DNA from: a virus
Virus record (IMG/VR): IMGVR_UViG_3300021401_000004
Coordinates: 28,961-92,960 of that record
Strand: one strand, 5' to 3'
Length of the DNA: 64,000 bases
Shown here: piece by piece, positions 3 to 63,553 of the stretch
Layout: the number at the start of each line of letters is the position of its first letter
Position numbering within the stretch: the stretch's first letter is position 1
Translations under genes and position numbers: made by a program
The notes under the pieces: generated by a model
Database searches by the model: none
The model's input: only the letters and a program-made list of their open reading frames with translations
What the model was told of the DNA's origin: nothing

Positions 3-791
3 GTCGCACTCGGTGGAAAGCAAGTAATTATTTATGACGGCACGCCCGAAGATTTAGGGGCGAAGATGGCCGCACAGAATTCCGAGCTTATTAAGCTCAA
101 CCGCCGCCTCAATAAAGACCTTCGGCTATCGAGTTCCACGGTTGACCGGATTCCGGACAATATCTCGCGCTTTGATGAATCGAAGTACGATCTGAAGCCC
201 GAACCTTTGACCGCTGAAGAACGGATTCAGTTGGCGAGCGATATCAACGATCCCGAGAAGTTTGATAAGGCCGCCCAGCGGATTGTGCGGGCGCAGATCG
301 GCGATCCAGAGGTCCTGCGGACAAGATTGTCCCGCGTTGAACAGCGCCTTGACCGAGCAACCGTCCAAGAAGAAGCGATTGCGTTTAAGAACGCGACGCC
401 CGAATATTACCCGTGTGCGGGAAATCTCCAGACACTCGCCGCATGGATGCAGAAGAATAACCTTGATCCGGTTAAGGAAAACTTCCAGTTTGCTTTCGAG
501 CAACTGAAAGAATACATGACTCCGAAGCCCGAGCCCGTTGTACAGAAAACGGAGCCGGAACCGACCCCTCAGCCCGCGCCACAGCCTGCACCGAGGCCCG
601 TGAGTTCGGGATTGACTCGCTCGAATGGTTCCGATAGTGGGCCCGCGCCGAACATCGGGATCACCCGCGCCGAGATTGACAAGATGTCGGGTGACGAATA
701 CAAAAAGAAGCTGCTCCATGAGCCCGGATTTCGGGCGAAGGTCGAAGCTCTTGACCAAGCGGAAGTACAGCGTCGGCAGGCGAGGGCGTAG
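3..791 (+). CDS. Putative capsid scaffolding protein (5' end outside window)
   Basis: Frame is open from position 3. Helical/charged protein with a Pro-rich linker and short C-terminal helix (MSGDEYKKKL), upstream of the capsid gene. Confidence 0.55.
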   Translation, partial: VALGGKQVIIYDGTPEDLGAKMAAQNSELIKLNRRLNKDLRLSSSTVDRIPDNISRFDESKYDLKPEPLTAEERIQLASDINDPEKFDKAAQRIVRAQIGDPEVLRTRLSRVEQRLDRATVQEEAIAFKNATPEYYPCAGNLQTLAAWMQKNNLDPVKENFQFAFEQLKEYMTPKPEPVVQKTEPEPTPQPAPQPAPRPVSSGLTRSNGSDSGPAPNIGITRAEIDKMSGDEYKKKLLHEPGFRAKVEALDQAEVQRRQARA

Positions 792-1205
792 TTGATCCGG
801 AGATACGAGGATCGCGATTTCGCAGATGTCGCTTGGTTAAACCAAGTCTCTTATGCGAAGCCTTGCTCGGATGAAGAACTCCGAGAACGCCTGATGTTGA
901 ATCGGGCATGGGTCTACGAAGATAGCCCGATAGTTGTTGGAGCTTTGATAACTGACGAATATTTCGAGCGAGATTACATCTGGAGCGTCACCGTTGCCCG
1001 CAACTGGCAGAAGCGAGGAATCGCAACAGCTTTGATTGCACAAGCAGAGAAGAACTTCGGAGAACTTCATTTACACACTGAGCCTTTCTCCGAGGGTGCC
1101 CGATTGTACACGAAGCTCGGCTGGAAGCCCGTAAAAACAGAGTTTGACTACTACGGGCCCGGAGCCGATGCTGTTCTGATGGTGAAAAGAAATGTGGACG
1201 TTTAA
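792..1205 (+). CDS. GNAT (RimI-like) acetyltransferase
   Basis: Acetyl-CoA motif V..NWQKRGIATAL, plus A..LY.KLGW and YY..G.DA..M. Confidence 0.8.
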   Translation: MIRRYEDRDFADVAWLNQVSYAKPCSDEELRERLMLNRAWVYEDSPIVVGALITDEYFERDYIWSVTVARNWQKRGIATALIAQAEKNFGELHLHTEPFSEGARLYTKLGWKPVKTEFDYYGPGADAVLMVKRNVDV

Positions 1206-1590
1206 CATCAAAGCCGGGAAAGTATTCCATAACGGAGAATTCTTTTCTACGGGTTGGTCCGGGCATAATGTTCGGGGCGGAGTTCAAGGGCGCAACAATC
1301 CCGCGACTCAGGCTATTAAGGATATTGGATCATTGCCCGTGGGTAAGTATACAGCGGGCACGGCATACGATAGCCCGAAAACAGGGCCCGTGACGATCCC
1401 GTTGTCGCCCAAACCGGGAACAGAAATGTACGGGCGCGACGGCATGAAGATTCACGGTTGGCAAATCGGAACGGACCCGAATGATCCGTATAATCCGTCG
1501 TCTGACGGGTGCATTCAGCAGGGACGCCCGTATCGGGAAGCGATCAATTCGTCGCCCGATAAAGATTGGGAAGTAGTTTCGGGCGAGTAG
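1192..1590 (+). CDS. Tlde1/DUF2778-like L,D-transpeptidase-fold peptidoglycan enzyme
   Basis: GWSG..NNP..Q....G.LP.G.Y and catalytic-type IHG...S.GCI. Confidence 0.65.
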   Translation: MWTFNIKAGKVFHNGEFFSTGWSGHNVRGGVQGRNNPATQAIKDIGSLPVGKYTAGTAYDSPKTGPVTIPLSPKPGTEMYGRDGMKIHGWQIGTDPNDPYNPSSDGCIQQGRPYREAINSSPDKDWEVVSGE

Positions 1591-1673
1591 AGATCACGAT
1601 TTGTGATCTCAAGTTCATTTTCCGTATAAAACAAAGGAGGCGCACAATGACAACCTTTAAATAGGAGGTCAAA

Positions 1674-1859
1674 ATGCGTACAGAAGAACAGAAGTTCGCG
1701 ACCAAGCTCCGTAAGGCGGGGGAGCGGGCAAAACATCGCGAGAGAGTTTTCAAGAAACATCCGCCATCGGTTCGCTATGCGAAGTCGAAGTTCAAAAAAG
1801 GAACTAAGCGTCCTCGCAAGAATCGGAAGCCCGTAACTGTAAAGTTGGGCGTGCAATAA
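1674..1859 (+). CDS. Small highly basic protein
   Basis: AGGAGG ribosome-binding site; K/R-rich 61 aa. Confidence 0.6.
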   Translation: MRTEEQKFATKLRKAGERAKHRERVFKKHPPSVRYAKSKFKKGTKRPRKNRKPVTVKLGVQ

Positions 1860-2096
1860 GAACGCAGTCCTCAAGCCTACTAACAGTGCTGAAATCGAGG
1901 TCTATTAAGTCGGGCGGTAGGGCAACTTATCGCCCGCAAATTTTGAGTCGAAGGCCGGATTGCCCGAGACTCCCCAATTACGTGAGGGATTCACCTGGAG
2001 TTCTCTGACTCCAAGCCCGCAAGCCTATCGGATTATAGGTTGCCCGCGAGCGTAGTAGAGCAGCTTCGGCTGAACTTGACCTAAACAGGTGAAACT

Positions 2097-4726
2097 ATGG
2101 GCTATAGCCCGAGTTCTAATAACCAGTCAAACCTGCCTCAGTCCACGGTTCGGTACTACGACAAAAAGTTCCGTTAAATGGTTCTTGCGGAATAGGGTCG
2201 AAGCTCGTGTGCCAAGAAACAGGAGAACCTGAAGGCACAGACGCCGTTCGTCGCGTGTTCCGAACGTTTGGACCTCCCGATGAAATCTGGTAACCAGTAC
2301 AACTTGTATCAAACAGGTACCCTCATCGCGTAAGCGATGTTGAATAACGTGGCTATATCGGGGGATAACTCATTGAGTCAATCCCGAGGGAAGTCTAAGT
2401 GACCCCGTAGAGACTACACGCCGCGCCCCGGAAACGGGTGATGATATAGTCCGCACTTACGGGCGACCGTAAGAGGTTGGCAGTTATACTTGCCCGCCGC
2501 AACAAAATGGATGTATGTTCCCCTCGCGGCCAACACCAGTCAGACGACTGAAGGAACTGTTGGCGCGGGCGTGAGCGTATCTGTACTGAATACCTCGGCG
2601 ACAATCGGTGAGTTGATTTGCGGCTCACCATAAACTTGACTATATCGGTGGACATCTGCTATAATGGCAGACAATACCGAGCCAAGACTAACCGTTTTAC
2701 AAGCCTATTAAATAATCCAAAAGGATGGCTAGAATGTCAGACAAATCAAAATATTCGTACCTCGCTGGAATTATTGATGGCGAGGGCTGTTTTTGCATCG
2801 GAGCTGGACGACGCCAGAAGTGGGGCGTCATCAACTACAATCCGCAGATATTGGTTGGCAATACGGACCATAGATTGACTGCGTGGCTGAAGGAAAACTT
2901 CGGGGGCGTAACTTTTACGCAACGCCCGAATAACCCGAGATGCAAAATTCCGTCTATTTGGCGGTTGTCGAAAAAGAAGGACATGGAACTTCTTATTTTG
3001 GCAATCATGCCTTATCTGATAATCAAAAAAGAGCGTGCAATTGTCTTCCTAGAATTTCTACGGCTTCCGCCGACAATGAATCCCGAACGTCGGGAAGAGT
3101 TGTGGAAACAGTTGTCGATCTTGAATAAACGGGGAGTAGACGTAGAGACTAATACGTCAAGCAGTTCGGAAAACGAACTGAAGATAGAGTCCGAACTTAC
3201 TGGTGACAGTAAGAGTGGCCCTGTGGTGACACAGGAGACGGCGACGCCCGTAATGACTGCCTAAAAACAGCATTCCCAAAACACAGTTGACGCTGATTAC
3301 GCTAACTTCTCCAGCCTCAGTCTGGCGACCGCAATCGACAACACTGTCGAAAACGTCGCCCGAGAGATGGCCTACCGTCTCGGCGAGTCCCTGTCCGCTT
3401 TGGTTCGTGCAACTGCGGACGGCGCGAACTCCGTGGATTCTTCGGTCCTGACCAAACTGGCCGCGACCTCGACCACGAGCTTCACGACTCTCTCCTTGAC
3501 CTACATCCGAAACGCCGTGCAGTCACTTGCTGGGCGTTCGGTTCGCCCGTTTGACGAAGCTTCCAAAAACTTTGCTGGTGTGATCCATTAGGTTGCGGGC
3601 AACCGCATAAGGGTGGATATAAAATTCTCTCTGATTGACTCGAACGCTGAGATGCCAACGAGGGGCAAGTCAATATAGTTCCATAATGGAAACATATTGA
3701 CAGCCTGAACGACTAAGCGAGAGAACGTTCATGTCGCATGAACGATGCAATAGTCTGAACAGTACGGAAAATGAACGTACTGAAGTAAGCAGAAATGACT
3801 TGCTCGGGCAAATCGCCCGTAACAACTTGCCTTTTGCACTCGGCGATGTTTTGGCGGACAACTCGAACGATTCGCCAATCGATATCCTGAAGCGTACTCC
3901 GCAGGGTTACAGCCGCCTGGATGAAATCATCTCGACGGACTTGACCGAAGTCATTGAAATCCCGACTTCCGGCGTAAGCTTCTTCCAGTCAAACTTGGTG
4001 ACCACCAGCCCGAACTACAATCCGGGAACTGGCGCGGTTACGGGCTTGACTGCTCTGCGTACGTATATCTTCGGGCGCGATGGCATTTTCTCCATCAACC
4101 TCGGAGCGCAGGGTGACACCGGATACGGTGACGGTGAGTGGCGGAATATCCGTTTTTCATAATGTTTAGCGGATACAAAATTTCTTCTAATTGACTCGAA
4201 CCCTGGAATGGCAACGAGGCGCAAGTCCAGAAAACGGACAGCGTGAGAGACTAAACGAAGAAACGCCTTCGGGCGATGCAATAGTCCGGTCTTCACAGAA
4301 CAACAAATGTGAAGAGGCAAGCAGAAATGACTTGCCCGTCGAAAGACGTAACACAGACGTGCAACATCGTGCAAAACGCCGAGCCTTCGGTTGCGGACCC
4401 CAGCGGTCTAATTCCGGGGTGGACCAGCTATCGTGTTCACTTCACGACCAGCTTGGGTCCGGATACTACAATCCGTATGTCATGGTAAAGTCCTAATGCG
4501 GATTCAAAACTCAATCTTATTGACTTGAAACCTGAAATGGCAACAAGGCGGAACCCTTCGGGGACCGTGAGAGACTAAGCGATTGAGCGCCTTCGGGCGA
4601 TGCGATAGTCCGAACATACGGAAAACGAACCGTATGAGGTTGGCAGAAATGACCAATCTCAACAGCTTGTAAGTTGTTGATAACAAGGCGATTAGGGAAA
4701 TTGACGCGGCCAGCGCAATCAGCTAA
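2097..4726 (+). CDS. Major capsid protein (N4 gp56-like), 7 exons, 347 aa after splicing
   Basis: Exons 2097-2174, 2223-2309, 2511-2613, 3290-3588, 3830-4153, 4360-4476 and 4691-4726 total 1044 nt in one frame: MGYSPSS..YYDKKFR|ENLKAQTPF..LPMKSGNQYNLY|MYVPL..IGE|YADY..GVIH|PFALGD..NIR|CNIVQN..DPSGLIPGWTSY..TIR|IREIDAASAIS*. Every junction is exon-U / intron-G. Confidence 0.85.
2175..2222 (+). other. 48-nt group-I-like mini-intron lacking a catalytic core
   Basis: Begins with an in-frame TAA. The guide GTTCTT-GCGGAA pairs with 5' exon TTCCGT (U.G at the junction) and 3' exon GAGAAC. Ends in G. No P3-P8. Confidence 0.7.
2310..2510 (+). mobile_element. Group I intron 2 (201 nt, no ORF)
   Basis: P1 GTATC/GGTAC, P3 CGTGGC/GCCGCG, P7 AGAGACTA (2409) with GATATAGTCC (2443), P8 GAAA loop, P9 GCGA loop, terminal G. 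Confidence 0.88.
2614..3289 (+). mobile_element. Group I intron 3 (676 nt) with LAGLIDADG ORF
   Basis: P1 GGTGAGT/GCTCACC, AGAGACTA at 3144, GATAGAGTCC at 3183, terminal G3289. Removal restores E-Y-A-D-Y. Confidence 0.9.
2725..3264 (+). CDS. Single-motif LAGLIDADG homing endonuclease (intron-encoded)
   Basis: YLAGIIDGEGCF, FGG and PYLIIKKERA motifs. Confidence 0.9.
   Translation: MARMSDKSKYSYLAGIIDGEGCFCIGAGRRQKWGVINYNPQILVGNTDHRLTAWLKENFGGVTFTQRPNNPRCKIPSIWRLSKKKDMELLILAIMPYLIIKKERAIVFLEFLRLPPTMNPERREELWKQLSILNKRGVDVETNTSSSSENELKIESELTGDSKSGPVVTQETATPVMTA
3589..3829 (+). mobile_element. Group I intron 4 (241 nt)
   Basis: P1 ATCCAT/GTGGAT, P10 AAGG/CCTT, P3 TTCTCTC/GAGAGAA, P7 GACTA/TAGTC. 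Removal restores VIH-PF. Confidence 0.9.
4154..4359 (+). mobile_element. Group I intron 5 (206 nt)
   Basis: P1 TATCCGT/GCGGATA, P3 TTTCTTC/GAAGAAA, P7 AGAGACTA..AATAGTCC, terminal G4359. Confidence 0.9.
4477..4690 (+). mobile_element. Group I intron 6 (214 nt)
   Basis: P1 AATCCGT/GCGGATT, P10 CCTAAT/ATTAGG, P3 CTCAATC/GATTGAG, P7 AGAGACTA..GATAGTCC, terminal G4690. Confidence 0.9.
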
Positions 4727-4851: not shown

Positions 4852-5565
4852 GTGGACAAAGGAAATATAGTAGGTCAGAGGTACGAGCGGCTCGAAGTCC
4901 TGATGCCCGCTTGGATAAACGAAAAACAAAATCAAGTTTGGTTGTGCGTCTGCGATTGCGGGCAAATTCGGTTTATCACCACTGCCGTTTGGAATGCCCA
5001 AAGTCGCAAAAGTTGCGGGTGTTTGCGTCGGGAAGTTTCTCGCGGGCAAACAACGGCCATGAATCTGGCACGGGCGGGCCAACCGCGATCCGCCAAAGGC
5101 AAGATAGCGTCTCAAGCAGCTTGCAAGAAAATGAACGCGGTGCGGCACTCTCACGCCCGCCACGTTCTGATTAAAGTAGACCCCGAGCGTTTGGTGGGCG
5201 AATGTGATGTCTGCGGGGCCGTTCCACTCAAGATAATGAAGCACCGCGTCGGCAATCAACGCGACCAATATCTATGTTGGGTGGGTTCTTTGCGGGTTCA
5301 CAACGAATACGCGAATGCGAGAGTCCGTTATCCGAACCACGCCTTGGAAATGTTTAACAAACAGGCCAACGCCTGCGCGGTTTGCGACGGGCAGATGATT
5401 AGGGGCGATGGTTTGGCAAATGACGGTATGGTTCTAGATCACTGCCACACGACGGGCTATATACGCGGGTTTACGCATCAACGATGCAACAAAGGGCTTG
5501 CAATGTTTCTTGATCGTCCGGAAGTATTCCGCAAAGCCGCCGATTACTTGGAAAGAAATCGCTAG
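4852..5565 (+). CDS. Free-standing endonuclease VII-family homing endonuclease
   Basis: GTG start after GGAGGG. N-terminal WLCVCDCG..KSCGC module; C-terminal DHCHTTG.IRG...RCNKGL. Confidence 0.8.
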   Translation: MDKGNIVGQRYERLEVLMPAWINEKQNQVWLCVCDCGQIRFITTAVWNAQSRKSCGCLRREVSRGQTTAMNLARAGQPRSAKGKIASQAACKKMNAVRHSHARHVLIKVDPERLVGECDVCGAVPLKIMKHRVGNQRDQYLCWVGSLRVHNEYANARVRYPNHALEMFNKQANACAVCDGQMIRGDGLANDGMVLDHCHTTGYIRGFTHQRCNKGLAMFLDRPEVFRKAADYLERNR

Positions 5566-5578: not shown

Positions 5579-5740
5579 ATGAAACGCCTCCTAATCATCG
5601 CCCTGATTTTGCTCGCCTTGTTTTGTATCGGGCAACGGGCGATCATCATCGAATACGAGCACGACATCGATAAACTGCACCAGGAACTCAAGCCATCTGC
5701 GGGCGTCGAGAAACCTCCGGCCTGCTTCGACGAAGATTGA
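5579..5740 (+). CDS. Small membrane-anchored protein
   Basis: MKRLLIIALILLALF hydrophobic N-terminus. Confidence 0.5.
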   Translation: MKRLLIIALILLALFCIGQRAIIIEYEHDIDKLHQELKPSAGVEKPPACFDED

Positions 5741-6021: not shown

Positions 6022-6040
6022 GGCCCGCACAATTAAGTTT

Positions 6041-6360
6041 GCTCAGTTGAAGTGCTGTTAAGACGTGCAAGACCGGGCTTCGAAGCCCGCAGGTCCACCA
6101 GATCGCCCGTTAAGTCGGTCGGAAAACTTGACTTCGGGTTTGGCTGCCAATATTTGCAAACTGGTAATGGGCGACGTGACGGGCCTGAAATGGATTCGAT
6201 TGCGCGGACGAGATAGCATGGATGGGCACGGATGCTGTGGCCACGTTACGGACACAGAAACAACAACCGCTACGACTAAACCTCGGGCGTTTGCGGCAGC
6301 CGCTTAATAAACGGCCCGCACGGAGTCAGCCGGGAACTCTGGAAAATAATCCCGGCAACT
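6041..6360 (+). ncRNA. ssrA: Circularly permuted (two-piece) tmRNA
   Basis: Acceptor piece ends T-arm-CAGGTCCACCA at 6100. Coding piece starts GGGCCTGAAATGGATTCGA at 6181. 7-bp acceptor stem with G3.U70. Tag frame 6269-6307 reads ATTKPRAFAAAA*. Outer ends are approximate. Confidence 0.85.
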
Positions 6361-6497: not shown

Positions 6498-6710
6498 ATG
6501 AACTTTCCCAAGACAGTTCGAGTCTACGATGCTATTGCGGGTGATTTTGTGGACAAGAAAGTGCGCTACAGGGAAGAAAAACTAGCTGACGGGCTAGTCT
6601 ATCGCTCTTGGGTAGTTCCGAGCGACCAATCCGTCGAATACATACACAAGAACGGCGGAGTTTACAAACGTATTACGGCGGGCTTCAGTCTTTATACGGA
6701 AAACGTATGA
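6498..6710 (+). CDS. Hypothetical protein
   Basis: First of a translationally coupled small-ORF array. Confidence 0.55.
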   Translation: MNFPKTVRVYDAIAGDFVDKKVRYREEKLADGLVYRSWVVPSDQSVEYIHKNGGVYKRITAGFSLYTENV

Positions 6711-6850: not shown

Positions 6851-6862
6851 TACGGAAAACGT

Positions 6863-8733: not shown

Positions 8734-8793
8734 TCCATTTTCCGTACAAGACTCTGCCCGTCACGATCCTAACACCCAACCTAAAGAGGAACT

Positions 8794-9987: not shown

Positions 9988-10104
9988 AAGACTTCTAAAA
10001 CGGCTGATTCTCTGGGCGCTTGACGGCGGGCTTCCGCAGATCGTGATTGTACAGAAAACGGATAGCCCGCAAATGATCGACATTCGAGTCCCGAAAGTAA
10101 AGCG

Positions 10105-49743: not shown

Positions 49744-50166
49744 CGCCCGCGCCTCCAAAGATACAGAATACCCAAAGTATTTACGGGCGTCAATACCACG
49801 ACCGCCCACATCATCCAAAGTTCAGGGTGGGTAAAGTGACCGTGGTAGATCATGCTTTATGCTCTAGAGTTCGGGCTTCCGTGAATTCAATGATTTCCCG
49901 CAGGCAGTTGCCGTCGAAGTCGCAGTCGGCAACTGTACGGAAAACGTACTTCCTCCAAGCTCCGCGCCACATGATTGCTCCGAGAATGCCGCCCGAAGCC
50001 TTGGATTTCACGATCCAGATGCTAGTCTTGCCGCTCGCGGTCTTACATTCGAATTCGAAATCCAGAAATTGATCCATAAACCTCGTTTCCTTTCGATTTA
50101 AGCGTTTCGGCCATCCTACCGCTCGCCCCTCGCCCGAACCTTCGTGCACGGGCGAGGAAAGCGGGT

Positions 50167-53523: not shown

Positions 53524-53868
53524 TTCTTCTCCTATTTCCAAGCCTGATTAAAAGTTATCGTGCAAGCTAGCCCGCAGACAATCATCGCGAGCAAGCTCGG
53601 AAGACTGGCGGTAAACGCGAATAAAAGCAAGTGCGCTAGCCCGACAAGACACGCTGCTAGCCAGAGTAGTTTGTAGTAGATCATCTAAACCTCGTAATAA
53701 CTGTCTCGGGCGACGATTTCTTCGTTCGTGAATCCTGCCCGTTTTAAAGCCTCGACTTCACTATCGCTTGAGGAATTTTCGGTTCTTACCGTCTGGTAAA
53801 TCAATTCCATAAGTAGAAGCTCTACGGGCGTCCGTTTTGACTTTGTCATATCTCCTCCGTTTTCCGTA

Positions 53869-54166: not shown

Positions 54167-55194
54167 TATTTTCCTCCGAGCAACTCCTTCAGCTTTCCTT
54201 CTGATTCCGCGGCTTCTAATCGGGCGACCAACTCGTTCATTTTCTGAACTGGAATGTCGTTCGTTATCTGAACGCCCGATTCCTTCAATAAATACTCTCG
54301 GATGCCCGTAAATCCTTTGTCCTTCAGTTTGATTAACCGCGCCATGAAAGCTTTTCGCTCGTCGTCAGTAGCGAGCCTCGCGGGGTTCTCACCTACCATT
54401 GACTTTCCAGGATTGACGGGCGGTTCAGGGTCGCCCGGAAAGATAACATCGGCGTCAGTAATAGGATTTTCGGGCGTTATGGTGTTGGAAACAGCCTTGA
54501 CATCTTGTGGAGGAGTGTATCCCACATTTTCAAGGCCGGGAAAGACTTCGTTGGTCTGTTTCGTAGCGTTGACGCCCGCAAGTCCAGCCCAAGGCTTGCC
54601 CGCATCAGGAACAGATTCTTTCTTCTTACGGGCTACGGGCTTCTGAAGCTCGGGCAACTTGCCAACGGTTACGGGCGCTACTGGCAGATTAGGGACGTTG
54701 ACACCTTGTCCAGCAGTAACGGGCGAATCCGTTTTCCGGACAAAGTTATCTCCCTGTTTCTCGAACTTCTGGCTGGCGGCATTCCCGTCGTCGTCCTCAG
54801 CGGCTACACCAACGATTGCTTGGTAAGCGTAACGACGGGCGTACGTAATCGCGCTACCTGTTCCTTGGGCGTCGAATTTGGCAATGGGAAGTTCAAGTTC
54901 GTCTTTGATCCACTCGCCCGAGGCGTGCGAAAGCAAAGTCGTGAGCAGGATATGGCCGTTATAAATCTTTCCGGGCGATTGAATGACGGCAAGTCCTTGG
55001 TCGGACAAAGCGTCAGCCGTAGCTTCGATTACGCCCGCAAGATCGGCATACTTAGATTTGAAGAAAGGGTTGTTGGCGTCCTTCAGAACGGGCTTGAACT
55101 GTTTGTGGGCGTTAGCGAGGGCTTTGGTTAGCTCGCCAATTGTGGGGGATTTCTCGAAGCCCGAAATTACGGGCAGATTTTCATTGCCTGACAT
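54166..55194 (-). CDS. ERF-family ssDNA annealing protein
   Basis: K...NP.FKSKYADL, H.SGEWI, Q..GSAITYARRY.....VG...EDDDGN. Confidence 0.9.
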   Translation of the reverse strand: MSGNENLPVISGFEKSPTIGELTKALANAHKQFKPVLKDANNPFFKSKYADLAGVIEATADALSDQGLAVIQSPGKIYNGHILLTTLLSHASGEWIKDELELPIAKFDAQGTGSAITYARRYAYQAIVGVAAEDDDGNAASQKFEKQGDNFVRKTDSPVTAGQGVNVPNLPVAPVTVGKLPELQKPVARKKKESVPDAGKPWAGLAGVNATKQTNEVFPGLENVGYTPPQDVKAVSNTITPENPITDADVIFPGDPEPPVNPGKSMVGENPARLATDDERKAFMARLIKLKDKGFTGIREYLLKESGVQITNDIPVQKMNELVARLEAAESEGKLKELLGGK

Positions 55195-55457
55195 TACTTT
55201 TTCCTTTCGAGTTTCGCGGGCAGAACTACGTAGGAGTTCCTTGTCCAGCTTGGGGTTTCTGTGCGGGCAAAGCGGCCCGAGCCATTAACAAAAGTGTAGT
55301 TCGTCGTAGCGGTAATTGCAGCTTCCGCCGATTTCCTTGTACGGAAAACGGACACTGGGTCTTCCCGACTAGCTTCCCAAAGAATAGGAAACTTATCGCC
55401 CGCATTCTTGCTGAAGTTCAAAACCCTGCGCGAAGTCTGATCGTAGACGATGAACAT
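55194..55457 (-). CDS. Hypothetical protein
   Basis: AGGAG ribosome-binding site; TAATG-coupled to the ERF gene. Confidence 0.6.
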   Translation of the reverse strand: MFIVYDQTSRRVLNFSKNAGDKFPILWEASREDPVSVFRTRKSAEAAITATTNYTFVNGSGRFARTETPSWTRNSYVVLPAKLERKK

Positions 55458-56143: not shown

Positions 56144-56902
56144 TCACGAGTCCTTGCGGGCGTCAAGAGAATTCTGGTATGTCACGAGACGGGCAATCCA
56201 GGCATAGAATTCATCTTGAGTCAGTGTTCGTTTGGCGTAATTACATTGCTTGCAGCACGGTACTACGTTGTTTTCCTTGTATCCTTCGCTGTTCCTAACG
56301 CGGTCTAATCCGTTGTATGTAAATCGGTCGCCCGTCTCAAGACGGCGAACTTGTCTCGGTTCTACCCCGCAGTAATGGCAATTCCCTTTTACTAGGGCGA
56401 AGAATACTTCCTTGGTCAGGGTGAATTCGTATCCGCGCTTCTTAGAAGTTCCCTTGTACTGTTTGTATAAATTATTCCGGGCAGCCAAACCCTCGGGCAG
56501 GCGATTGGCCGTGCAGCCACATCCTGTTGACGTGCCGTTCCGCAGGGTGGGCGCTATTACGTTTCTTTCCGTGCCGCATTTGCAGCGGCAGAGGTATTGG
56601 ACGAGAGCACCCTTGTTTTCCGATTGGCGGATTACGAACCAATCGCCATAGTGCTTGCCTGTCTCGTTCTTATGGAGTTTGCCTTTACGTTGACAATTGC
56701 AACTTGTAGATCGCCCGTCAACGAGACTAGTAGCCAAGACAGACCGCTTTGTTCCACAATCGCAAAGACAGAGAAACCTAGTTGCCCCGTTCGTGCCGTT
56801 TTCGGCGCGTTCTAGGACAATCCATTTTCCGAATCTTTGACTTGTTAAATCCCTGAATGCGAGTTGCGGATGGCTTTTTAGGGGATATTTCAGTGCTTTC
56901 AA
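56144..56902 (-). CDS. HNH-type homing endonuclease
   Basis: Two C.C.CG..S.SC modules, C.YCG, NGLDR....GY...NVVPCC..CN.AK. Confidence 0.85.
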   Translation of the reverse strand: MKALKYPLKSHPQLAFRDLTSQRFGKWIVLERAENGTNGATRFLCLCDCGTKRSVLATSLVDGRSTSCNCQRKGKLHKNETGKHYGDWFVIRQSENKGALVQYLCRCKCGTERNVIAPTLRNGTSTGCGCTANRLPEGLAARNNLYKQYKGTSKKRGYEFTLTKEVFFALVKGNCHYCGVEPRQVRRLETGDRFTYNGLDRVRNSEGYKENNVVPCCKQCNYAKRTLTQDEFYAWIARLVTYQNSLDARKDS

Positions 56903-58848
56903 TGCGCTTCCTTCCAGTTTGAACCTATGCCCGCGTTGACTAGAGTCGGGACTTGGAGAGGAATAGATTGTACCATAAACTGTTTAACCTTGTCAAGTGC
57001 CCTTTTACCCGCCTCCCCCGAATCGACCGAACCGTCTAATTCGTCATGGACGGTTAGCGTTAGAGTGATATTGCCTTCTTTGAGCAAACCCGATTCCCAA
57101 ATGTCCACCATAGCCTTCTTGGTAATATCGGCATTCGAACCCTGGAGGACGCGATTCAGGGCTTTATGCGTACCCGCCCGCGACAGTTTGATTCCTTTGT
57201 AATATCGTTCGGCTTCTTCCAAGGGCATCGCCCCTGCATACGGAATATTTGCGGGCAAGTCTTTTGTGAAACGCGGCTCATACAGATTGAATCGGCATCG
57301 TCGTCCGAGGATGGTCTTGACGTAACCTTGCCTCTCGGCTTGCTGGGAGGCTTTGTTGTAAATCTCCTTGATGAACGGTGCTCGGGCGTGGTAGGTTTCC
57401 ATGATGTCCAGCGCTTCCTGCTTGGGCGATCCGTCTTCATTTGCTAGCCCCAAGGAAGCTGCTAGCTTGGGGGCCCCCATGCCGTAGCATAGCCCGAAGT
57501 TCAAATTCTTGGCGGGCTTGCGGTCGAGCCCCGTCAGATCGGCAACCATCTGATGGAAATCGATGTCCGGCTTCTCAATATACGTTTTCTGTACGCCTTC
57601 TGCGCCCTTGCATTTGGATAATAAAGCGTAGTGGACGAGGAGACGGTACTCCATTTGGCTGTAGTCCGCACTATACCAATCCATCAGGAACTCGGGAACG
57701 AATAGCCCGCGTATTTCTGCTCCTAGCTCGGTTCTGATGGGAATATTCTGTAGACTTGGATCGGATGTTGAGAAACGCCCACTGACAGTCCCGCGCACGC
57801 CTTCCTCGTCCGCCCGTCGTAGGGGATGAATTTGTGTGTGAATCCTGCCATTGAGATGTCCGTTCAGAATGTACGCTTCTACGAATGTCCCACGAATCTT
57901 TTCAAACTCGCGGGCTTCATTCAAGAGGGCTGCGAACGGGTGTTTTACTTTTTTCAGCCAGTCGTTCTTGAATGACGGGTTCCCTTTCTCAGTCAATGGG
58001 TACTTGATACCCAAAACCTGAAATGCTCGGGCGAGGTCTTTGGGCGAACTAGGATTGACTTGAAACCCGAATGTGTTTGCCATTTGCTGGCAAGCATCTT
58101 GATACTTGGTTTTAAGTTCTCGCTCCAATTGCACGGCCTTATCTAGGTCTACATCTACGCCCCGCTCACGCATGTAGTTCAGGAGCGGCGTCAAACGGCA
58201 TTCCAGATCAAATAGGGCGGTCAGTTCGTCGGCTTCCAAAGCAGGAATCTGCTTCTCATACGTCCGGAGGGCCAAATCTACGTCCACCAGAGCATAAGGT
58301 GAAGCGTGCCCCGGATGAACTTCGGAGAAATGTTCCTTGACGTTCTCTCCATACTTCTCAATCAATACATCCGAAGTCTTGCCTTCGCTCAGATACTTTT
58401 GAGCAATGGCTTCTAGTCTGTAGCTGATTGCGTATTCATCAAGGAGTGCTTCTGCCCATTGAACGTCCCGCCATTTGGCCGAGTCAGCCGTGATGCCCGC
58501 TTTGAGCAAGAAGAAAGCGTCAAACAGATTGGAGTTGGCTCCCACGATTTCGCCCGTGTAGCCATGCAACTGGTCTTTCAGCCAGCGCAGGACTACGGCT
58601 TCGTCACAGTTTGGACCCCCTTTATGACGTGTCGGATAGTATTCCTGAAAGCCATCATCGGTCTTAACGGTCACGCCGACAATGTAACCTCCACGCAGCG
58701 GATCAAGCCCTTGGGTTTCAAGGTCAAGGCTAATCCGTTTTGCGGATTTAATGGGGGGAAATTTGGTAGGAGCCCGATAGCCCGCAACAGATAAGCGGGG
58801 GAGGGCCCAGAGTTCGCTTTCGGGCAGCAATGATAGTTGCTCAGCCAT
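56899..58848 (-). CDS. polA: Family A DNA polymerase (3'-5' exonuclease plus polymerase)
   Basis: DLET, SGRFS...P.LQNIP, ADYSQME.R, R..AK.LNFG..YG, QGS.AD..K, VHDE. Start taken at MAEQLS. Confidence 0.95.
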   Translation of the reverse strand: MAEQLSLLPESELWALPRLSVAGYRAPTKFPPIKSAKRISLDLETQGLDPLRGGYIVGVTVKTDDGFQEYYPTRHKGGPNCDEAVVLRWLKDQLHGYTGEIVGANSNLFDAFFLLKAGITADSAKWRDVQWAEALLDEYAISYRLEAIAQKYLSEGKTSDVLIEKYGENVKEHFSEVHPGHASPYALVDVDLALRTYEKQIPALEADELTALFDLECRLTPLLNYMRERGVDVDLDKAVQLERELKTKYQDACQQMANTFGFQVNPSSPKDLARAFQVLGIKYPLTEKGNPSFKNDWLKKVKHPFAALLNEAREFEKIRGTFVEAYILNGHLNGRIHTQIHPLRRADEEGVRGTVSGRFSTSDPSLQNIPIRTELGAEIRGLFVPEFLMDWYSADYSQMEYRLLVHYALLSKCKGAEGVQKTYIEKPDIDFHQMVADLTGLDRKPAKNLNFGLCYGMGAPKLAASLGLANEDGSPKQEALDIMETYHARAPFIKEIYNKASQQAERQGYVKTILGRRCRFNLYEPRFTKDLPANIPYAGAMPLEEAERYYKGIKLSRAGTHKALNRVLQGSNADITKKAMVDIWESGLLKEGNITLTLTVHDELDGSVDSGEAGKRALDKVKQFMVQSIPLQVPTLVNAGIGSNWKEAH

Positions 58849-59199
58849 TACTTGCCCGAGCAAGAACGAAGGGGGCACTTGAAATACGAATCCTCGCCCG
58901 TACCCGAATCCCGAGGGACGCTGACAAGGTTGAAATCGTGCTGGGAGCAAACCGCCGCCGAGATAACGACGATCATAGGTTCGGGCGTTACTTCCACAGT
59001 GTCGCTCATTGACTTTCCTCTTTCGTATATAATTCACATTCACTTGCGGGCAAAACTTTCTTCCTCTTGCCCTTGATCGGTTGGGCGATTTCCGCCGTCA
59101 GGCTGACGAGGACGCCCGTACGCTTCCCTTGGTTCTTAGGATCGTAGTAGAACACGGTTTCCCCGATGTTTTCGTGCGTGATGGGTTTGCCCGACATAA

Positions 59200-59517
59200 T
59201 TACCGTTTCTTTCGGGCAACTTTCTTCACGGGCTTCGTTTTCCGGACGCCCGCAGCCTTGAGAATCTTGGCGAACGTTGCGGGCGAGAACGTGCGGCAGC
59301 CGATAGCAAATATATCGGGACTGTAGTTGATCTTTATGCAATTTCCTTGCGGGCAAATCTTGCAATGGAGTTGAACTTCGTTGAGTCCCGCTTGCGCCGC
59401 AAGCCTCAGTTCCGATAGAAGAACCCAAGTGGAGTAGGGATCAATCATGCCCGCGACTTCTCGCAAGCGAGTCGTGCTCAGATTCAACTTTTCTCCGTTC
59501 ACATCTTTGATAATCAT
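59200..59517 (-). CDS. Hypothetical protein with basic tail
   Basis: GGAGGGAG ribosome-binding site before MIIKD. Confidence 0.5.
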   Translation of the reverse strand: MIIKDVNGEKLNLSTTRLREVAGMIDPYSTWVLLSELRLAAQAGLNEVQLHCKICPQGNCIKINYSPDIFAIGCRTFSPATFAKILKAAGVRKTKPVKKVARKKR

Positions 59518-59776
59518 GTTTACACTCCCTCCAAGAAATCCGCCGCTGTTTGATTTACGGGCAGCCGATCTGCGACGCAAAGATCGCCCGTACCTTGATA
59601 CGTTTTCCGTACTACGAAGACTTCGAACCGCCGAGCTTCTACTTTTCTGTGCCGCCCGCAAAGAACCAACCGAACTTCAAACGACTGCCCGCGAACAATA
59701 GAATCCCTGCCGCTACGCCCGCAAGGAATCTTGGCGAGTAACTTCCTGTTTTTCACGAAGGCTTGACACGGGTGCT

Positions 59777-60088
59777 TCATTTCATTTGACGGGCGTCGAA
59801 CTCTGGAAACACTATTTCGGCTTCGCAAGTCTGCATCTTGCCGTCCTGAAAGTATTTTACCCAGATATCGCCCGCTTCCTCGCCTTCACCTTTCAGAATA
59901 AACAACTTCTTGGGGTGTTTCTTGGAGAACGCCCGCATGTCCTGCTCGTGTTCGTACCATTTGCAGGCGTCGTCAAATGGGTCCCCTTCACCACCGTACA
60001 AGGTTTTATACTGATCCTCGATGACTTCAGTTTCAATTACGTTGTCCTTGGGAGAAAATTCCAACTCAAATCGTGTGTAATAACCCAT
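59777..60088 (-). CDS. Hypothetical phage protein
   Basis: AGGAGG ribosome-binding site; MGYYT.F..KWY.H..DM..FS...P..LF.L.GEGEE. Confidence 0.7.
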   Translation of the reverse strand: MGYYTRFELEFSPKDNVIETEVIEDQYKTLYGGEGDPFDDACKWYEHEQDMRAFSKKHPKKLFILKGEGEEAGDIWVKYFQDGKMQTCEAEIVFPEFDARQMK

Positions 60089-61116
60089 CAGTCTCCTCCT
60101 GCGGTCGCCCGCAATACGTTTTCCGTACACAAAGCTTGCCCGATAATCTCAGCGTACTTCTTGTGATCTTCGGGCGATGAGTGCGTATACCTCGCCCCGA
60201 TTCCTTGTCTCGCGTGGCCCATTCGTTCGTCTTGGAGGTATTCGGGCACCCCGAGACTCTGCATCAGGGACTTGTTCATGTGCCGAAGTGCGTGCAAGCC
60301 GATACCTTCACCAAGTACGGGTTTCAGCCGTCTCACAACATCGCCGTTGTTCCAGACTTTACCCTTGTTGGAAAATAATAAATTCTCGTCAGGTCTTGTC
60401 GTGTCGGGTCCTGTCCAGTCGCGTCTTGTCAGGTCCAGTTGCGTCAAGTAAAACCCAAGATTGCGGGCGAGGCCCCGGCTAATGTGAATCGCCCGCAAAG
60501 CATTCGTTGTCTTTGGGGTTTGCAAGACGCCCCGAAACGCCGAGCGCCGAATGTGGACGATCTGATTAGCCAGATCAATATCGTCGCGCATTAAACTGAC
60601 CATCTCCCCGCCACGGCAACCGAGTTCGGCGCATAGCTGCAACATCATCCCGAATTGTCCGTCCACCTTCCGTACTAACTCGCGAACCTCCTCGGTGGAC
60701 AAGTGACGGGCTTCGGTTTTCTGCGCCCTCGGCAGGCTTAGGAATTCAAACGGGTTTTCCTTGACGTACTTCCAAGCGCGGGCCTTCCGCCAAACCATCC
60801 GCATTACTCCGAGCAAGTTTCGGAGAGTTTTGGGAGAGCCTAGGAAGCCCGTAACGTATTGTTGAATCCGCTCGGTATCGATCTTATTCAGCGGCAGTTG
60901 CCCGAAAGTCTGATTCAACGCTTCGATGTTCGATGTAATACTGCTCTGCGATGCGGGTTTGAAGTTAGGAACGATATCGGCCAAGTATTGGTCCGTAACG
61001 GTCTTGAACTTGACGTATTCCTTCGGGCGTTGGCTGCTCGCAAATATCCCGTCTTCGCGCATCTCAACCCAAACTTGGATCGTATTACCGTCGAAAGTGA
61101 GGGTTCCGCGTTTCAT
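60088..61116 (-). CDS. Tyrosine recombinase/integrase
   Basis: G.R.GE, PKT....R, HALRH, MGH, YTH catalytic set. Confidence 0.9.
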   Translation of the reverse strand: MKRGTLTFDGNTIQVWVEMREDGIFASSQRPKEYVKFKTVTDQYLADIVPNFKPASQSSITSNIEALNQTFGQLPLNKIDTERIQQYVTGFLGSPKTLRNLLGVMRMVWRKARAWKYVKENPFEFLSLPRAQKTEARHLSTEEVRELVRKVDGQFGMMLQLCAELGCRGGEMVSLMRDDIDLANQIVHIRRSAFRGVLQTPKTTNALRAIHISRGLARNLGFYLTQLDLTRRDWTGPDTTRPDENLLFSNKGKVWNNGDVVRRLKPVLGEGIGLHALRHMNKSLMQSLGVPEYLQDERMGHARQGIGARYTHSSPEDHKKYAEIIGQALCTENVLRATAGGD

Positions 61117-61436: not shown

Positions 61437-61466
61437 AATATACGGAAAACGGACTGTTAATGTCAA
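61437..61466 (-). promoter_or_regulatory. sigma70 promoter containing the repeated 11-mer, upstream of the integrase region
   Basis: TTGACA-18 nt ending CGTTTTCCG-TATATT, then GGAGGA and ATG at 61427. Confidence 0.6.
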
Positions 61467-61478: not shown

Positions 61479-61766
61479 CTATTTGCGGGCAACTTTGCGA
61501 AAGACTTCGGTCGCCCGTAACAACTTGCGGGAGTATCCGATGAGGTTGTTTCCTCGACACCAGAGATCAAATACCTCTTCTAAAGAGGCGCTTTCAACCC
61601 ATTCCCGTGTTCGCTGGAACTCGCCACGTCCGTCCCGCGTTGCTTCTTCCTGATCTGGATAAATCTCCGACCACAAAAGCTCGTCAGCGTGCCCAGATCG
61701 TATTAGTTTCTTGAGGCGGGGCCCGACCGTGAGCACGGTCCCGTACTTCTCAGATTTCTTTAGCAT
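61479..61766 (-). CDS. Hypothetical protein
   Basis: GGAGG ribosome-binding site. Confidence 0.55.
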   Translation of the reverse strand: MLKKSEKYGTVLTVGPRLKKLIRSGHADELLWSEIYPDQEEATRDGRGEFQRTREWVESASLEEVFDLWCRGNNLIGYSRKLLRATEVFRKVARK

Positions 61767-62328
61767 TGTCTTCCTCCAATCTATAAATTTCGTACGTCAC
61801 GCTGCCCGCCTGCACAACGTCTCTAACCTGTCGTTCTCGGGCGTTCATCTGACTCTCGCCCGTCTTGACTTCCAACAACACGATTCTATCAAGTTTGCCC
61901 GCATCAAGTCCAGAGAAAATTACATAATCCACGGGCTGCCCGATAAAATGGCAGTCTTTCGGGCTATACGGGAATCCAACCATGTGCGGCGCAAGTTGCT
62001 CGGCAACGAGTCCGCGATTCACGGCTTTGGATTGCTTGATGGCGTCCTCGCGTTCGGTTTTCGTATACTTGACTTTCCATTTATCAAACTCAAGTTGCGC
62101 CTGTTCAAGAGCTTGCCTACGGGCGACTTGCCCGAACTCCGTACGGAAAACGGATAACTGCGATTCCAACGAATCCATTGCCTGCTTCTGCGCGGCAGCC
62201 CGAAAGCTTTCAAGAGATTGCTGAAACGCCTCCAACTCTTGGGCTTTCGCGGCAGCTTGCTTTTTCGCCCGTAAGAGTCCCAACAGAAGCCCGAAGGCTA
62301 ACACCCCGAGAATCGCTGCTAGAATCAT
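61750..62328 (-). CDS. Holliday junction resolvase-like protein with N-terminal TM
   Basis: R.DAI..S.AV..G...EQLAP, F.G.P.DY..F.GL, EVKTG. Confidence 0.8.
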   Translation of the reverse strand: MILAAILGVLAFGLLLGLLRAKKQAAAKAQELEAFQQSLESFRAAAQKQAMDSLESQLSVFRTEFGQVARRQALEQAQLEFDKWKVKYTKTEREDAIKQSKAVNRGLVAEQLAPHMVGFPYSPKDCHFIGQPVDYVIFSGLDAGKLDRIVLLEVKTGESQMNARERQVRDVVQAGSVTYEIYRLEEDNAKEI

Positions 62329-62362
62329 TTTCGAATTCGCTCGGTATAAACCACCTAAAGTT

Positions 62363-62818
62363 TTACTTCCCGAAAACCAAATCGTGTATTTTCATCGCGT
62401 TACAAGTTTCAATCGGGCGTCCGCTTTCCAAACAAAGCAGGCACCGAAGCAAACGCCCGTTGTATCGCCCGTGAATCCCACAATGGTTTACCGGGCCTTC
62501 GGGCAAGTACCGCTCGGGATTGCCCGAGAACCTTCCAGCATCTTCGGGCGTCCAGCCGTGAGCCTTGACCAGATGCGCGAAGGTATTCTTGCCCGTGAAA
62601 TGACAAATCGGGCACATTGGCGGGCCAGAAACGCTCTCCCGAATCTTCACGGGCTTCGACGCCCGAAATCTACTCAAAGGCTCGCCATACTCCCTAAGCT
62701 TGCGGTACAGCGTCGTTCGCCCGATACCTAGCTCACGGGCTGCCCGTTGACAATCCCGTGTTTCCAGGCATGCCGCTAGGATTGCTTCCCGTTCTATGGT
62801 TGCAAGTGGGCGAATCAT
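62363..62818 (-). CDS. Fis-type HTH protein with Zn-finger-like segments
   Basis: AARELGIGRTTLYRKL..YG; CPIC..H...H. Confidence 0.75.
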   Translation of the reverse strand: MIRPLATIEREAILAACLETRDCQRAARELGIGRTTLYRKLREYGEPLSRFRASKPVKIRESVSGPPMCPICHFTGKNTFAHLVKAHGWTPEDAGRFSGNPERYLPEGPVNHCGIHGRYNGRLLRCLLCLESGRPIETCNAMKIHDLVFGK

Positions 62819-63168
62819 TCCTTTTCACTCCGTTCCCAAGCGTTATGCTGGGCGTCATCTTGTATCTGCCCGCATCGATCCTGCCAGCATGACGGGCAGC
62901 GGGCCGAGCCTTTACCGGGCGTAGTAGGTTGCCCGCAATCAATACAGAAAGTGGATTCGGGCGATACCCTTCCTTCCCGCGCTATAACGTCTATAGCCTT
63001 GCGGGTGTCTGACTCTTCCCAATCATCTAGCGTCCGTTGTATGCTCCCTTTCCATACGTTTTCCGTACCGTGCAAGTCTTGACGCCCGACGCCTGGACAC
63101 AAGAGCATCGGTCGCCCGTTATAGGTATGTGCGGCATGAGGCTCTAGGCACGAACAAGGTTTGGACAT
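62815..63168 (-). CDS. Cys-rich hypothetical protein
   Basis: GGAGGAG ribosome-binding site; CIDCG..RCPSC. Confidence 0.55.
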   Translation of the reverse strand: MSKPCSCLEPHAAHTYNGRPMLLCPGVGRQDLHGTENVWKGSIQRTLDDWEESDTRKAIDVIAREGRVSPESTFCIDCGQPTTPGKGSARCPSCWQDRCGQIQDDAQHNAWERSEKE

Positions 63169-63553
63169 TTCTCCTCCGTTTTCCGTATTTTCTTGACAAC
63201 GTAGCCCGAACGTGCCATGATGCTACACGAAAGGGGAATTACTTATGGTTACTTTCATTCTCAAACTTGCGGGTGTCTGGTTCTTGGCTTCCATCGTCTT
63301 CGCTTTGTTCTTCGGGCGGCTCTGCGCTATGAGCGATTGCCCGAAGCCCGATAAACGCTAAACCTTCGGGCTAAACCAAGATTGTCCTCCATGAATATCG
63401 TAACGGACAACGGTCTTGTCGTACTCGTCCGCAAGCTTCTGAGCGGTCTCGTTCGCTTGCTTTATGTCTGAAAAATAGTAGCGTGTCCGCTCATCTTTCG
63501 GATGACAAACATAGAATTCCCGCATACTTCCTCCTATCGCCCGTGTCTACGGG

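Follow-up and report, generated by a model that had tools for sequence, protein, structure and literature searches.

The stretch of DNA analyzed here, which we call the window, comprises 64,000 nucleotides (bases 28961-92960) of the 92,960-bp IMG/VR record IMGVR_UViG_3300021401_000004, a viral genome rated complete by CheckV. The genome belongs to a 93-kb, podovirus-like soil phage with an SU10-type portal, and its genes are arranged in two arms, one read rightward from about 2.5 kb to 65.5 kb of the genome and the other read leftward from 2.5 kb through the record ends to 65.5 kb. Sugar-pathway genes, the terminase, the portal, a GIY-YIG endonuclease and the structural genes reside in the rightward arm. 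The leftward arm holds genes for replication and recombination (family A DNA polymerase, primase and helicase, RecA, ERF, SSB and nucleases), along with MazG-like and deoxynucleoside triphosphate hydrolase genes and a tyrosine integrase. Tunturiibacter phage Tunturi_3, which infects Acidobacteriota, is the nearest cultured relative; it has the same two-arm layout and a portal that is 52% identical. When 12 kb of the window was compared with cultured phages by megablast, no match was returned. Distributed over both arms are many copies of a short asymmetric word, TACGGAAAACG, and its close variants (Table 1), and this repeated motif is the subject of our analysis.

The motif was originally noticed by eye in a first-pass annotation, which listed 26 exact copies and seven TACAG variants and judged the chance expectation to be far below one. 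All of the coordinates quoted there are correct, but the repeat was understated. Our recount of the window gives 27 copies of TACGGAAAACG, at least one of those at 14872, 46114, 50250, 52453, 53858, 55340, 60117, 62142 and 63057 having been missed, and eight copies of TACAGAAAACG, among which the copy at 57583 had been overlooked. Dinucleotide-shuffled versions of the window contain on average 0.05 and 0.04 copies of the two words, respectively, and no shuffle reached either observed count. In the whole record there are 36 exact copies where approximately 0.1 would be expected. The annotation had also proposed comparing word counts with a Markov background, and this comparison (30 third-order simulations) yields 42 one-mismatch copies in the whole record versus about 3.6, for a total of approximately 78 sites in 93 kb. 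The commonest variants in the genome are TACGGAAAATG (12 copies) and TACAGAAAACG (nine copies). When all k-mers of the genome are ranked without bias for over-representation, the word and its sub-words come out on top, accompanied only by a poly-G run and a coding tandem repeat.

The conserved element is longer than the 11 nucleotides first recognized. Its full consensus is R-TAC-R-GAAAA-Y-G-D-A-Y, an asymmetric site of about 15 bp, as in GTACGGAAAACGGAT. Position -1 is a purine in all 45 strict copies and position +12 is an A in 44 of them, while position +11 is G, A or T (mostly G) and position +13 is mostly T or C. Both flanks are kept in 51 of the 56 window copies that have at most one mismatch, and the purine at -1 and the A at +12 are likewise present on intragenic and antisense copies. 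Because the sequence beyond these flanks is unrelated between copies, the element is a 15-bp site standing alone, with no longer repeat around it. Copies inside genes occupy two sense phases and several antisense phases, and therefore the constraint must act on the DNA rather than on an encoded peptide.

A scan of viral contigs for the 14-mer identified one further large genome, IMGVR_UViG_3300050821_004371 (91,482 bp; hereafter G001), and several fragments. G001 carries 55 copies of TACRGAAAAYG and aligns in a mosaic manner to approximately 63% of our genome (G000 where the two are compared), at roughly 65-98% identity. Where sites align, the core columns differ by about 2%, compared to 9-10% for the 15 bases on either side, and position 9 (C, T or A) is the sole free column. 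Three fragments (L052, L068 and L028), of which only 30-45% of the length is alignable, at 67-80% identity, carry exact copies with the same flanks, mostly in the non-alignable DNA. Tunturi_3 has a single near-copy of the motif and no other highly repeated word, and six loci of a clade with about 40% guanine plus cytosine (portal identity 55%) have neither the motif nor an equivalent repeated word. From the conservation of the core, the presence of the site in the fragments and its absence from Tunturi_3, we conclude that the site is under purifying selection and confined to one young lineage. Thus the genome-wide, asymmetric character ascribed to the motif at first reading is upheld, and lineage specificity can now be added to it.

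Such a site might nevertheless be read by a recruited host protein, for example a global regulator or a nucleoid protein, or it might represent a host-type signal for uptake or one resembling Chi. We consider this improbable. In its favor, the protein that we propose below as the binder encoded by the phage is a candidate only, and two bacterial genomes show some excess of the 11-mer: a Planctomycetaceae metagenome-assembled genome (MAG), G004, has 13 copies versus about 2.6 expected, and an Acidobacteriota genome, G035, has 11 copies versus none for the control word. In both genomes, however, the copies lack the flanking D-A-Y and the purine and therefore represent a different site. A search of G035 with 20 kb of the window (20000-39900) found no matching DNA. 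Across 401 Acidobacteriota genomes, including the unpublished genomes G034 and G059 with two copies each (none of our claims depends on these two), there are 0-4 copies per genome, like the reversed-word control, although as a check of the host this is indirect. When 185,579 species genomes were scanned for the 14-mer, the matches listed were isolated single occurrences and no genome among them was dense in hits, and about 0.6 Mb of soil metagenome loci contained no exact copy. The first-pass annotation had stated that a motif equally common in the host genome would speak against its proposal; the motif is not enriched in the genomes searched, which serve only as stand-ins for the host. One locus (L245; Planctomycetaceae MAG CAYWGR01, contig 15, positions 5006-5038) does contain a tandemly duplicated 19-bp unit with the exact 14-mer TACGGAAAACGGAT, just downstream of a gene. 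This is probably the result of chance and local duplication, and the other copies in that genome lack the flanks.

The most telling locations of the motif are in promoters. Using the pattern TTGACA-N16-18-TATAAT and allowing up to two mismatches, we found 23 strong sigma70-type promoters, of which six (five in the window and one outside) carry the motif in the spacer, whereas the fraction of the genome covered by promoter windows leads us to expect approximately 0.3 strict copies by chance. Five of these promoters share the same register, wherein the -35 box is followed by 8-9 nucleotides, then by CGTTTTCYG, and then by the TA with which the -10 box begins (window positions 14484, 22942, 27726, 34185 and 61466; motif reverse-complemented). 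A protein bound there would exclude RNA polymerase, and this is the classical operator position; copies in promoters had already been remarked upon in the first annotation. Three of these promoters are retained in G001, where the motif copy of one is degraded, and G001 has an additional promoter of the same design before a different gene. The five fixed-register copies are oriented opposite to the transcripts of their own promoters, whereas copies at gene junctions are co-oriented with transcription.

Two of the genes behind this promoter-plus-motif cassette encode orphan DNA methyltransferases, one of the MT-A70 type and one of the C5 cytosine type. Both are counter-oriented within the structural arm, and both are absent from G001.

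Gene junctions are the other recurrent setting, as had also been claimed at the outset. Twenty-one of the 45 strict copies (47%) are not fully within a called coding sequence (CDS), against 17% expected (p = 2.6e-6), and 24 are fully intragenic. A common junction form consists of a stop codon, the motif, 1-25 nucleotides and a start codon, and in G000 and G001 the distances from the start of the motif to the ATG cluster at 12, 15 and 19. About one third of strict copies are located 1-31 nucleotides upstream of a co-oriented start codon, versus about 5% of random positions, and approximately 15 of 36 sense copies lie within 31 nucleotides of a start.

These distances raise the possibility that the motif is a phage-specific, single-element promoter. 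Host RNA polymerase would then be redirected by an unrecognized phage factor, in the manner of T4 gp55 with TATAAATA or phiEco32 gp36, to begin transcription at the A of position +12. We regard this as unlikely. If it held, the motif promoter and any sigma70 promoter overlapping it on the opposite strand would be mutually exclusive. The near-invariance of the A at +12 (44 of 45 strict copies) fits this proposal, as does the spacing, since TACGGA taken as a -10-like hexamer would place +12 at seven nucleotides after it. The start codon falls exactly at offset 12 in five cases (both genomes combined), which would generate leaderless mRNAs, and at offsets 15 and 19 in 11 further cases; moreover, intragenic sense copies lie mostly in the 3' half of their gene, upstream of the next gene (15 of 16). 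Against it, Pfam and PHROGs scans of most proteins (all but a few from the structural arm) revealed no RNA polymerase or sigma factor, and no DxDGD motif turned up in a pattern search. The base at what would be -1, position +11, is most often G, contrary to the usual preference for a pyrimidine at -1 and a purine at +1. Eight intact copies are antisense inside genes, and seventeen sense copies are in the early/replication arm, which has sigma70 promoters of its own. Late-promoter systems are usually common to a whole phage family, yet Tunturi_3 has homologous structural genes and no equivalent repeated word. Finally, the promoter copy at genome position 2502 lacks the A at +12.

A role in mRNA is similarly suggested by the association with start codons. 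If the motif were a start-associated element, like the start-associated sequence (SAS) of cluster K phages, it could be the site of a translational regulator or an aid to re-initiation between tightly packed genes. The one third of strict copies found shortly before co-oriented starts and the recurrent order of stop codon, motif and ATG are in keeping with such a role. In addition, three copies in fragment L052 are followed by GATAATG, and the GGA of the motif lies six nucleotides before those ATGs that are at offset 12. Most copies, however, are far from any start codon, and the 20% that are antisense have full flanks all the same. The copy at 61441 is upstream of the transcription start of its own promoter and in the non-transcribed orientation, and the constant register seen in five promoters is a property of DNA. 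The motif contains no AGGAG core, and it does not keep a constant distance from the start codon. For these reasons we think a function at the mRNA level has little chance of being the explanation.

The orientation of the copies initially seemed to be informative. The first-pass annotation counted about 25 of 33 copies on the coding strand of their arm (12 of 13 in the left arm), and the count holds: 27 of 35 copies in the window (left arm, 13 of 14; right arm, 14 of 21) and 36 of the 45 strict copies are sense, with nine antisense. The functional argument does not. The coding strands of this genome are rich in A and G and the motif is itself rich in purines, such that a strand-aware Markov model predicts a sense-to-antisense ratio of 2.5-3.4:1, where 27:9 (exact copies) and 36:9 (strict copies) are observed, and sub-words outside the motif have a comparable bias, mostly 2-3:1. 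Since strand composition alone predicts a sense bias of about 80%, we no longer take orientation as evidence of orientation-dependent action.

Another conceivable role is in recombination, with the motif serving as a short homology at mosaic boundaries through which the phage ERF, RecA or resolvase proteins exchange cassettes. The genome is rich in recombination genes, and of 98 breakpoints where G000 and G001 cease to be homologous, 11 are within 20 bp of the motif, versus 3.3 for random positions, several of them exactly at the motif. An equal-sized random sample of gene starts is, however, near even more breakpoints (mean 19.4), and therefore the association is explained by the presence of the motif at gene boundaries. 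Given that the fixed promoter register and the intragenic copies would also be left unexplained, we rejected a recombination hot spot as the specific role of the motif and consider this proposal very improbable.

The protein that would recognize the site may be encoded close to one of its copies. Only one regulator-like protein emerged from the Pfam and PHROGs scans, namely the 151-amino-acid product of the gene at 62363-62818. Its sole Pfam match is HTH_8 (E = 4.8e-11), and the first of its two Cys/His elements is kept in its few homologues. The protein is 95% identical in G001 and its zinc-ribbon neighbor is 97% identical, whereas the integrase is only 60% identical; the gene pair is absent from Tunturi_3. 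Motif copies are located 8 nucleotides upstream of the operon and inside it, a layout resembling autoregulation. The upstream copy, at 63177, has a second neighbor: a divergent plus-strand promoter (63193-63221), which serves a 38-amino-acid membrane peptide and whose -35 box is 5 bp away. With a helix-turn-helix (HTH) and a Cys2-His2 pattern, the protein would possess two unlike DNA-reading modules, which would suit an asymmetric site of about 15 bp read by a monomer. To judge from its sequence, this architecture is analogous, not homologous, to that of the gp71/TipsytheTRex repressor: a search of PDB sequences matched NtrC/Fis HTH chains only and gave no similarity to the cluster A repressor.

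We also evaluated other assignments. Two HTH proteins, at 38326 and 62363, had been put forward as binders in the first annotation. The former is a MazG-like pyrophosphatase and no HTH protein, and the latter, with its Fis-type HTH and Cys2-His2 pattern, is plausible. A Ros/MucR-like zinc finger is not supported for it, as it has neither a Pfam ROS_MUCR match nor a PDB match of this type, and its only additional hits were a sub-threshold C2H2 match (E = 0.034) and a spurious match to a transcription activator-like effector repeat. When we looked for co-occurrence of binder and motif in soil metagenomes, a back-translated pattern for the protein retrieved 80 unrelated loci (0.6 Mb) without an exact copy, the pattern having matched generic NtrC-type HTH sequences. 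The protein encoded at 62363-62818 is thus a plausible candidate, and the best one, for the motif-binding protein.

Taken together, these observations lead us to favor, with about an even chance of being correct, the hypothesis that the motif constitutes a set of operator and stoperator-like sites for a DNA-binding protein encoded by this phage lineage. A sequence-specific protein of the lineage would recognize R-TAC-R-GAAAA-Y-G-D-A-Y, presumably as a monomer with two different DNA-reading modules, for which the 151-amino-acid protein is the best candidate. Where the site lies in the spacer and -10 box of a sigma70-type promoter, the bound protein would keep host RNA polymerase off the DNA and the site would act as an operator; this role is expected at the promoters of the two orphan DNA methyltransferase genes, the 96-amino-acid gene, the integrase operon and the leftward arm. 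The remaining sites, approximately 70 in number and residing at junctions and in genes of both arms, would load the same protein throughout the genome, and the loaded protein would damp or block transcription as in the operator/stoperator sets of cluster A phages.

Several points weigh against this hypothesis. More than half of the sites are intragenic, a larger share than that described for L5, and an orientation preference beyond that predicted by composition, which is a hallmark of stoperators, was not observed. The clustering of start codons at offsets 12, 15 and 19, together with the A at +12, also fits a role in transcription start or translation start. The candidate protein has few homologues, and its AlphaFold model is confident for the HTH only, with predicted local distance difference test scores of 83-93 over residues 1-50 and under 50 across much of the remainder. 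Lysogeny is suggested by the integrase gene only, and no prophage copy was found in the one genome (G035) searched with 20 kb of phage DNA.

More speculatively, genome-wide silencing of the operator/stoperator type may have originated independently in a lineage of soil podoviruses, probably of Acidobacteriota. A small monomeric HTH and zinc-finger protein would read the 15-bp site, and the site would also be part of a portable cassette (TTGACA, 8 nucleotides, CGTTTTCCG, TATAAT) that drives counter-oriented cargo such as orphan DNA methyltransferases. We put this forward as a tentative proposal that is somewhat doubtful as a whole.

To our knowledge, the cluster A mycobacteriophages are the only phages in which asymmetric repressor sites spread over the genome have been characterized experimentally, and similar-looking repeats in T1-like and cluster K phages still lack an explanation. 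If confirmed, another case, unrelated to the first, would tell us whether roadblock control of the whole genome is a strategy that phages use generally. It would also provide a compact new DNA-recognition pair, composed of a protein and a 15-bp site, and an entry point to gene regulation in the phages of a soil phylum that has been little studied. In this case the operator register in sigma70-type promoters is clear and the candidate binders are few, and the promoter-operator cassette before the methyltransferase genes is directly testable in reporter systems.

Table 1. Motif copies, motif-bearing promoters and other features (window coordinates unless noted; CDS, coding sequence; ORF, open reading frame; SD, Shine-Dalgarno sequence)
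Feature	Position	Strand	Context
TACAGAAAACG copy	541-551	+	inside CDS, sense
Motif copy	4617-4627	+	non-coding stretch, capsid/intron locus
Motif copy	6695-6705	+	3' end of CDS 6498-6710; next ATG (6707) at offset 12
Junction copy	6851-6861	+	stop TAG abuts; ATG 6863 at offset 12
TACAG copy	10050-10060	+	doubtful 42-aa ORF or intergenic
TACAG copy	14460-14470	+	spacer and TA of -10 box, MT-A70 methyltransferase minus-strand promoter; 25 nt upstream of ATG 14496
Motif copy	14872-14882	+	inside CDS, sense
Inverted copy	16615-16625	-	exactly between stop of 16199-16612 and SD/ATG of 16637
Junction copy	20140-20150	+	stop TAA abuts; ATG 20158
Motif copy	22918-22928	+	spacer/-10 of perfect minus-strand promoter; 17 nt upstream of ATG 22946 (1256-aa gene)
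Junction copy	26717-26727	+	stop TAA abuts; ATG 26729 at offset 12
TACAG copy	27702-27712	+	spacer/-10, minus-strand promoter of 96-aa gene 27390-27680; 15 nt upstream of ATG 27728
Motif copy	34161-34171	+	spacer/-10, C5 cytosine methyltransferase minus-strand promoter; 14 nt upstream of ATG 34186
Junction copy	36273-36283	+	stop TAG abuts; ATG 36307
TACAG copy	36531-36541	-	3' end of CDS 36525-36776, sense
Motif copy	38933-38943	-	inside recA-like gene, sense
Motif copy	41187-41197	-	inside CDS, sense
TACAG copy	42024-42034	-	CDS 3' end; 3 bp upstream of a TTGACA hexamer
Motif copy	42867-42877	+	inside CDS, antisense, full flanks
TACAG copy	43780-43790	-	inside CDS, sense
Motif copy	46114-46124	-	intergenic
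Motif copy	47135-47145	+	inside helicase CDS, antisense
Motif copy	49936-49946	+	inside CDS, antisense
Motif copy	50250-50260	-	inside CDS, sense
Motif copy	52453-52463	+	inside PD-(D/E)XK nuclease CDS, antisense
Motif copy	53215-53225	-	inside SSB CDS, sense
Junction copy	53858-53868	-	stop TAG abuts, then GGAGGAG and ATG 53849
Motif copy	55340-55350	+	inside CDS, antisense
TACAG copy	57583-57593	-	inside DNA polymerase CDS, sense
Motif copy	59601-59611	-	intergenic, directly after TAG
Motif copy	60117-60127	-	3' end of integrase CDS, sense; 28 nt before next start
Motif copy	61441-61451	+	spacer/-10, minus-strand promoter upstream of 62-aa ORF and integrase gene
Motif copy	62142-62152	+	inside Holliday-junction-resolvase-like CDS, antisense
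Motif copy	63057-63067	-	inside zinc-ribbon protein gene, sense
Motif copy	63177-63187	-	8 nt upstream of ATG of gene pair 62815-63168 / 62363-62818
TACGGAAAATG	1616-1626	-	full flanks, intergenic
TTCGGAAAACG	3165-3175	+	full flanks
TACGGAAAATG	3763-3773	+	full flanks
One-mismatch copy	8736-8746	-	full flanks, junction
TGCGGAAAACG	13907-13917	-	full flanks
TACGGAAAGCG	31048-31058	+	full flanks
TACGGAAAGCG	32806-32816	-	full flanks
TACGGAAAAAG	34450-34460	+	stop TAG abuts; ATG 34467
TACGGAAAATG	38304-38314	-	in MazG-like gene
One-mismatch copy	41614-41624	-	full flanks
One-mismatch copy	44156-44166	-	full flanks
One-mismatch copy	44553-44563	-	full flanks, intergenic
One-mismatch copy	45789-45799	-	stop TAG abuts, then GATA; ATG at offset 15
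One-mismatch copy	48372-48382	-	full flanks
One-mismatch copy	54730-54740	-	full flanks
One-mismatch copy	59236-59246	-	full flanks
Promoter TTGACA-N17-TACAAT	14456-14484	-	sigma70-type; MT-A70 methyltransferase gene, leaderless geometry
Promoter TTGACA-N17-TATAAT	22914-22942	-	sigma70-type; 0 mismatches, perfect consensus; conserved in G001
Promoter TTGACA-N17-TACTAT	27698-27726	-	sigma70-type; drives 96-aa gene
Promoter TTGACT-N17-TATAAT	34157-34185	-	sigma70-type; drives C5 cytosine methyltransferase gene
Promoter TTGACA-N18-TATATT	61437-61466	-	sigma70-type; upstream of 62-aa ORF and integrase; conserved in G001
Sixth promoter	genome position 2502		outside window; first leftward-arm promoter, motif in spacer, direct orientation
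Candidate binder, 151 aa	62363-62818	-	Fis-type HTH (residues 5-45), CPICH..HLVKAH (CX2C-X12-HX4H), second Cys/His cluster
Zinc-ribbon protein (CxxC..CxxC), 117 aa	62815-63168	-	first gene of pair
Tyrosine integrase	60088-61116	-	downstream of motif-bearing promoter 61437-61466
MT-A70 methyltransferase gene	13868-14449	-	orphan
C5 cytosine methyltransferase gene	33559-34140	-	orphan
Group I intron	2300-2473	+	within capsid-gene region
Permuted (two-piece) tmRNA	6040-6307	+	
Nucleotide-metabolism genes	36785-38329	-	side by side
Family A DNA polymerase gene	56899-58878	-	
Pentapeptide-repeat protein	63554-63991		encoded by 15-bp tandem repeat
15-bp tandem repeat	63839-63999		continues across record end; about 11 copies in window

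Other features of the genome deserve mention. By far the most over-represented 5-mer is GCCCG/CGGGC: the 93 kb contain 1,118 copies, or about one every 83 bp, which is five times the expectation from composition. It is found in all reading phases and on both strands (for example, at window positions 36285-36300 and 42850-42900), and G001 has the same excess, whereas Tunturi_3 does not. Modification or methylation of the DNA might account for this excess, as might a further binding protein. Side by side in the leftward arm are encoded an N-terminal domain like that of dATP/dGTP diphosphohydrolases, a protein with a weak nucleoside deoxyribosyltransferase-like match and the MazG-like pyrophosphatase. 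Such sets of nucleotide genes accompany non-canonical DNA bases in some phages; no PurZ-like gene was recognized. A tblastn search of G001 gave no match to the family A DNA polymerase gene, though neighboring genes are shared, and thus the two genomes appear to carry different replication modules.

Two RNA elements were recognized by Rfam: a permuted (two-piece) transfer-messenger RNA (tmRNA; 65.8 bits versus a gathering score of 47), for which ARAGORN made no call, and a group I intron (51.4 bits), around which Tunturi_3-like capsid segments form separate short ORFs. Outside the window, at genome positions 5587-5663 (locus L246), the plus strand contains a run of 77 G residues that may be an artifact of assembly or sequencing.

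Several known systems resemble the motif in part. T4 late promoters (TATAAATA, served by gp55/gp33) and MotA boxes are likewise short single elements repeated tens of times just upstream of genes, sometimes within the preceding gene. Unlike the T4 case, no cognate sigma factor or activator was found here among the proteins scanned, many copies are antisense or in the early arm, and the element is not shared with the nearest cultured relative.

The T1-like phages, including Citrobacter phage Stevie and T1, have 16-20 asymmetric and mainly intergenic repeats of 22 bp, which are oriented with transcription and whose function is unknown (PMC4319613). Those repeats are longer, fewer and unrelated in sequence, the phages are lytic, and the published account describes no promoter-embedded copies (PMC4319613). 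The SAS of cluster K mycobacteriophages is a 13-bp asymmetric, lineage-specific repeat of unproven function, with an AGGAG core, that is located in one arm, 3-7 bp from nearly every associated start codon, and is almost never intragenic or inverted (PMC3203893). Many copies of our motif also lie just upstream of starts, some overlapping the previous stop codon, and the SAS word is absent from host genomes, much as ours is not enriched in the genomes searched. In contrast to SAS, only about one third of the copies are associated with starts, 24 of 45 are intragenic, nine of 45 are antisense and five lie in promoter spacers; the motif contains GGA rather than AGGAG, and a separate GGAGGAG follows it at 53858 and 63177.

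The closest parallel is with cluster A mycobacteriophages, in which L5 gp71 and the TipsytheTRex repressor bind asymmetric 13-15-bp sites present in tens of copies in both arms, in promoters and in short intergenic gaps (PMC9283540). The shared features include more than 20 copies of one asymmetric, lineage-specific site over both arms of a two-arm genome, the location of sites within promoters (operators) as well as beside stop and start codons in short intergenic gaps, and the presence of an integrase. Like the cluster A repressor (PMC9283540), the candidate protein begins with an HTH, after which comes a second putative DNA-reading module. There are also clear differences. The motif sequence is unrelated, the phage is a 93-kb podovirus-like virus with an SU10-type portal, and its host probably differs, as the nearest cultured relative infects Acidobacteriota. 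No similarity between binders is detectable, more than half of the sites are intragenic, and the orientation bias is explained by composition. Five promoters here hold the site in the spacer and -10 box, whereas the L5 operator overlaps the -35 region, and repression and lysogeny would be common to both systems only if our hypothesis is correct. The likeness to cluster A stoperators drawn in the first-pass annotation therefore holds for the many asymmetric sites, the operators, the junctions and the integrase, and fails for the tie to orientation and for repressor homology. Taken as a whole, the motif would seem to work most like a stoperator system, without being a member of that family.

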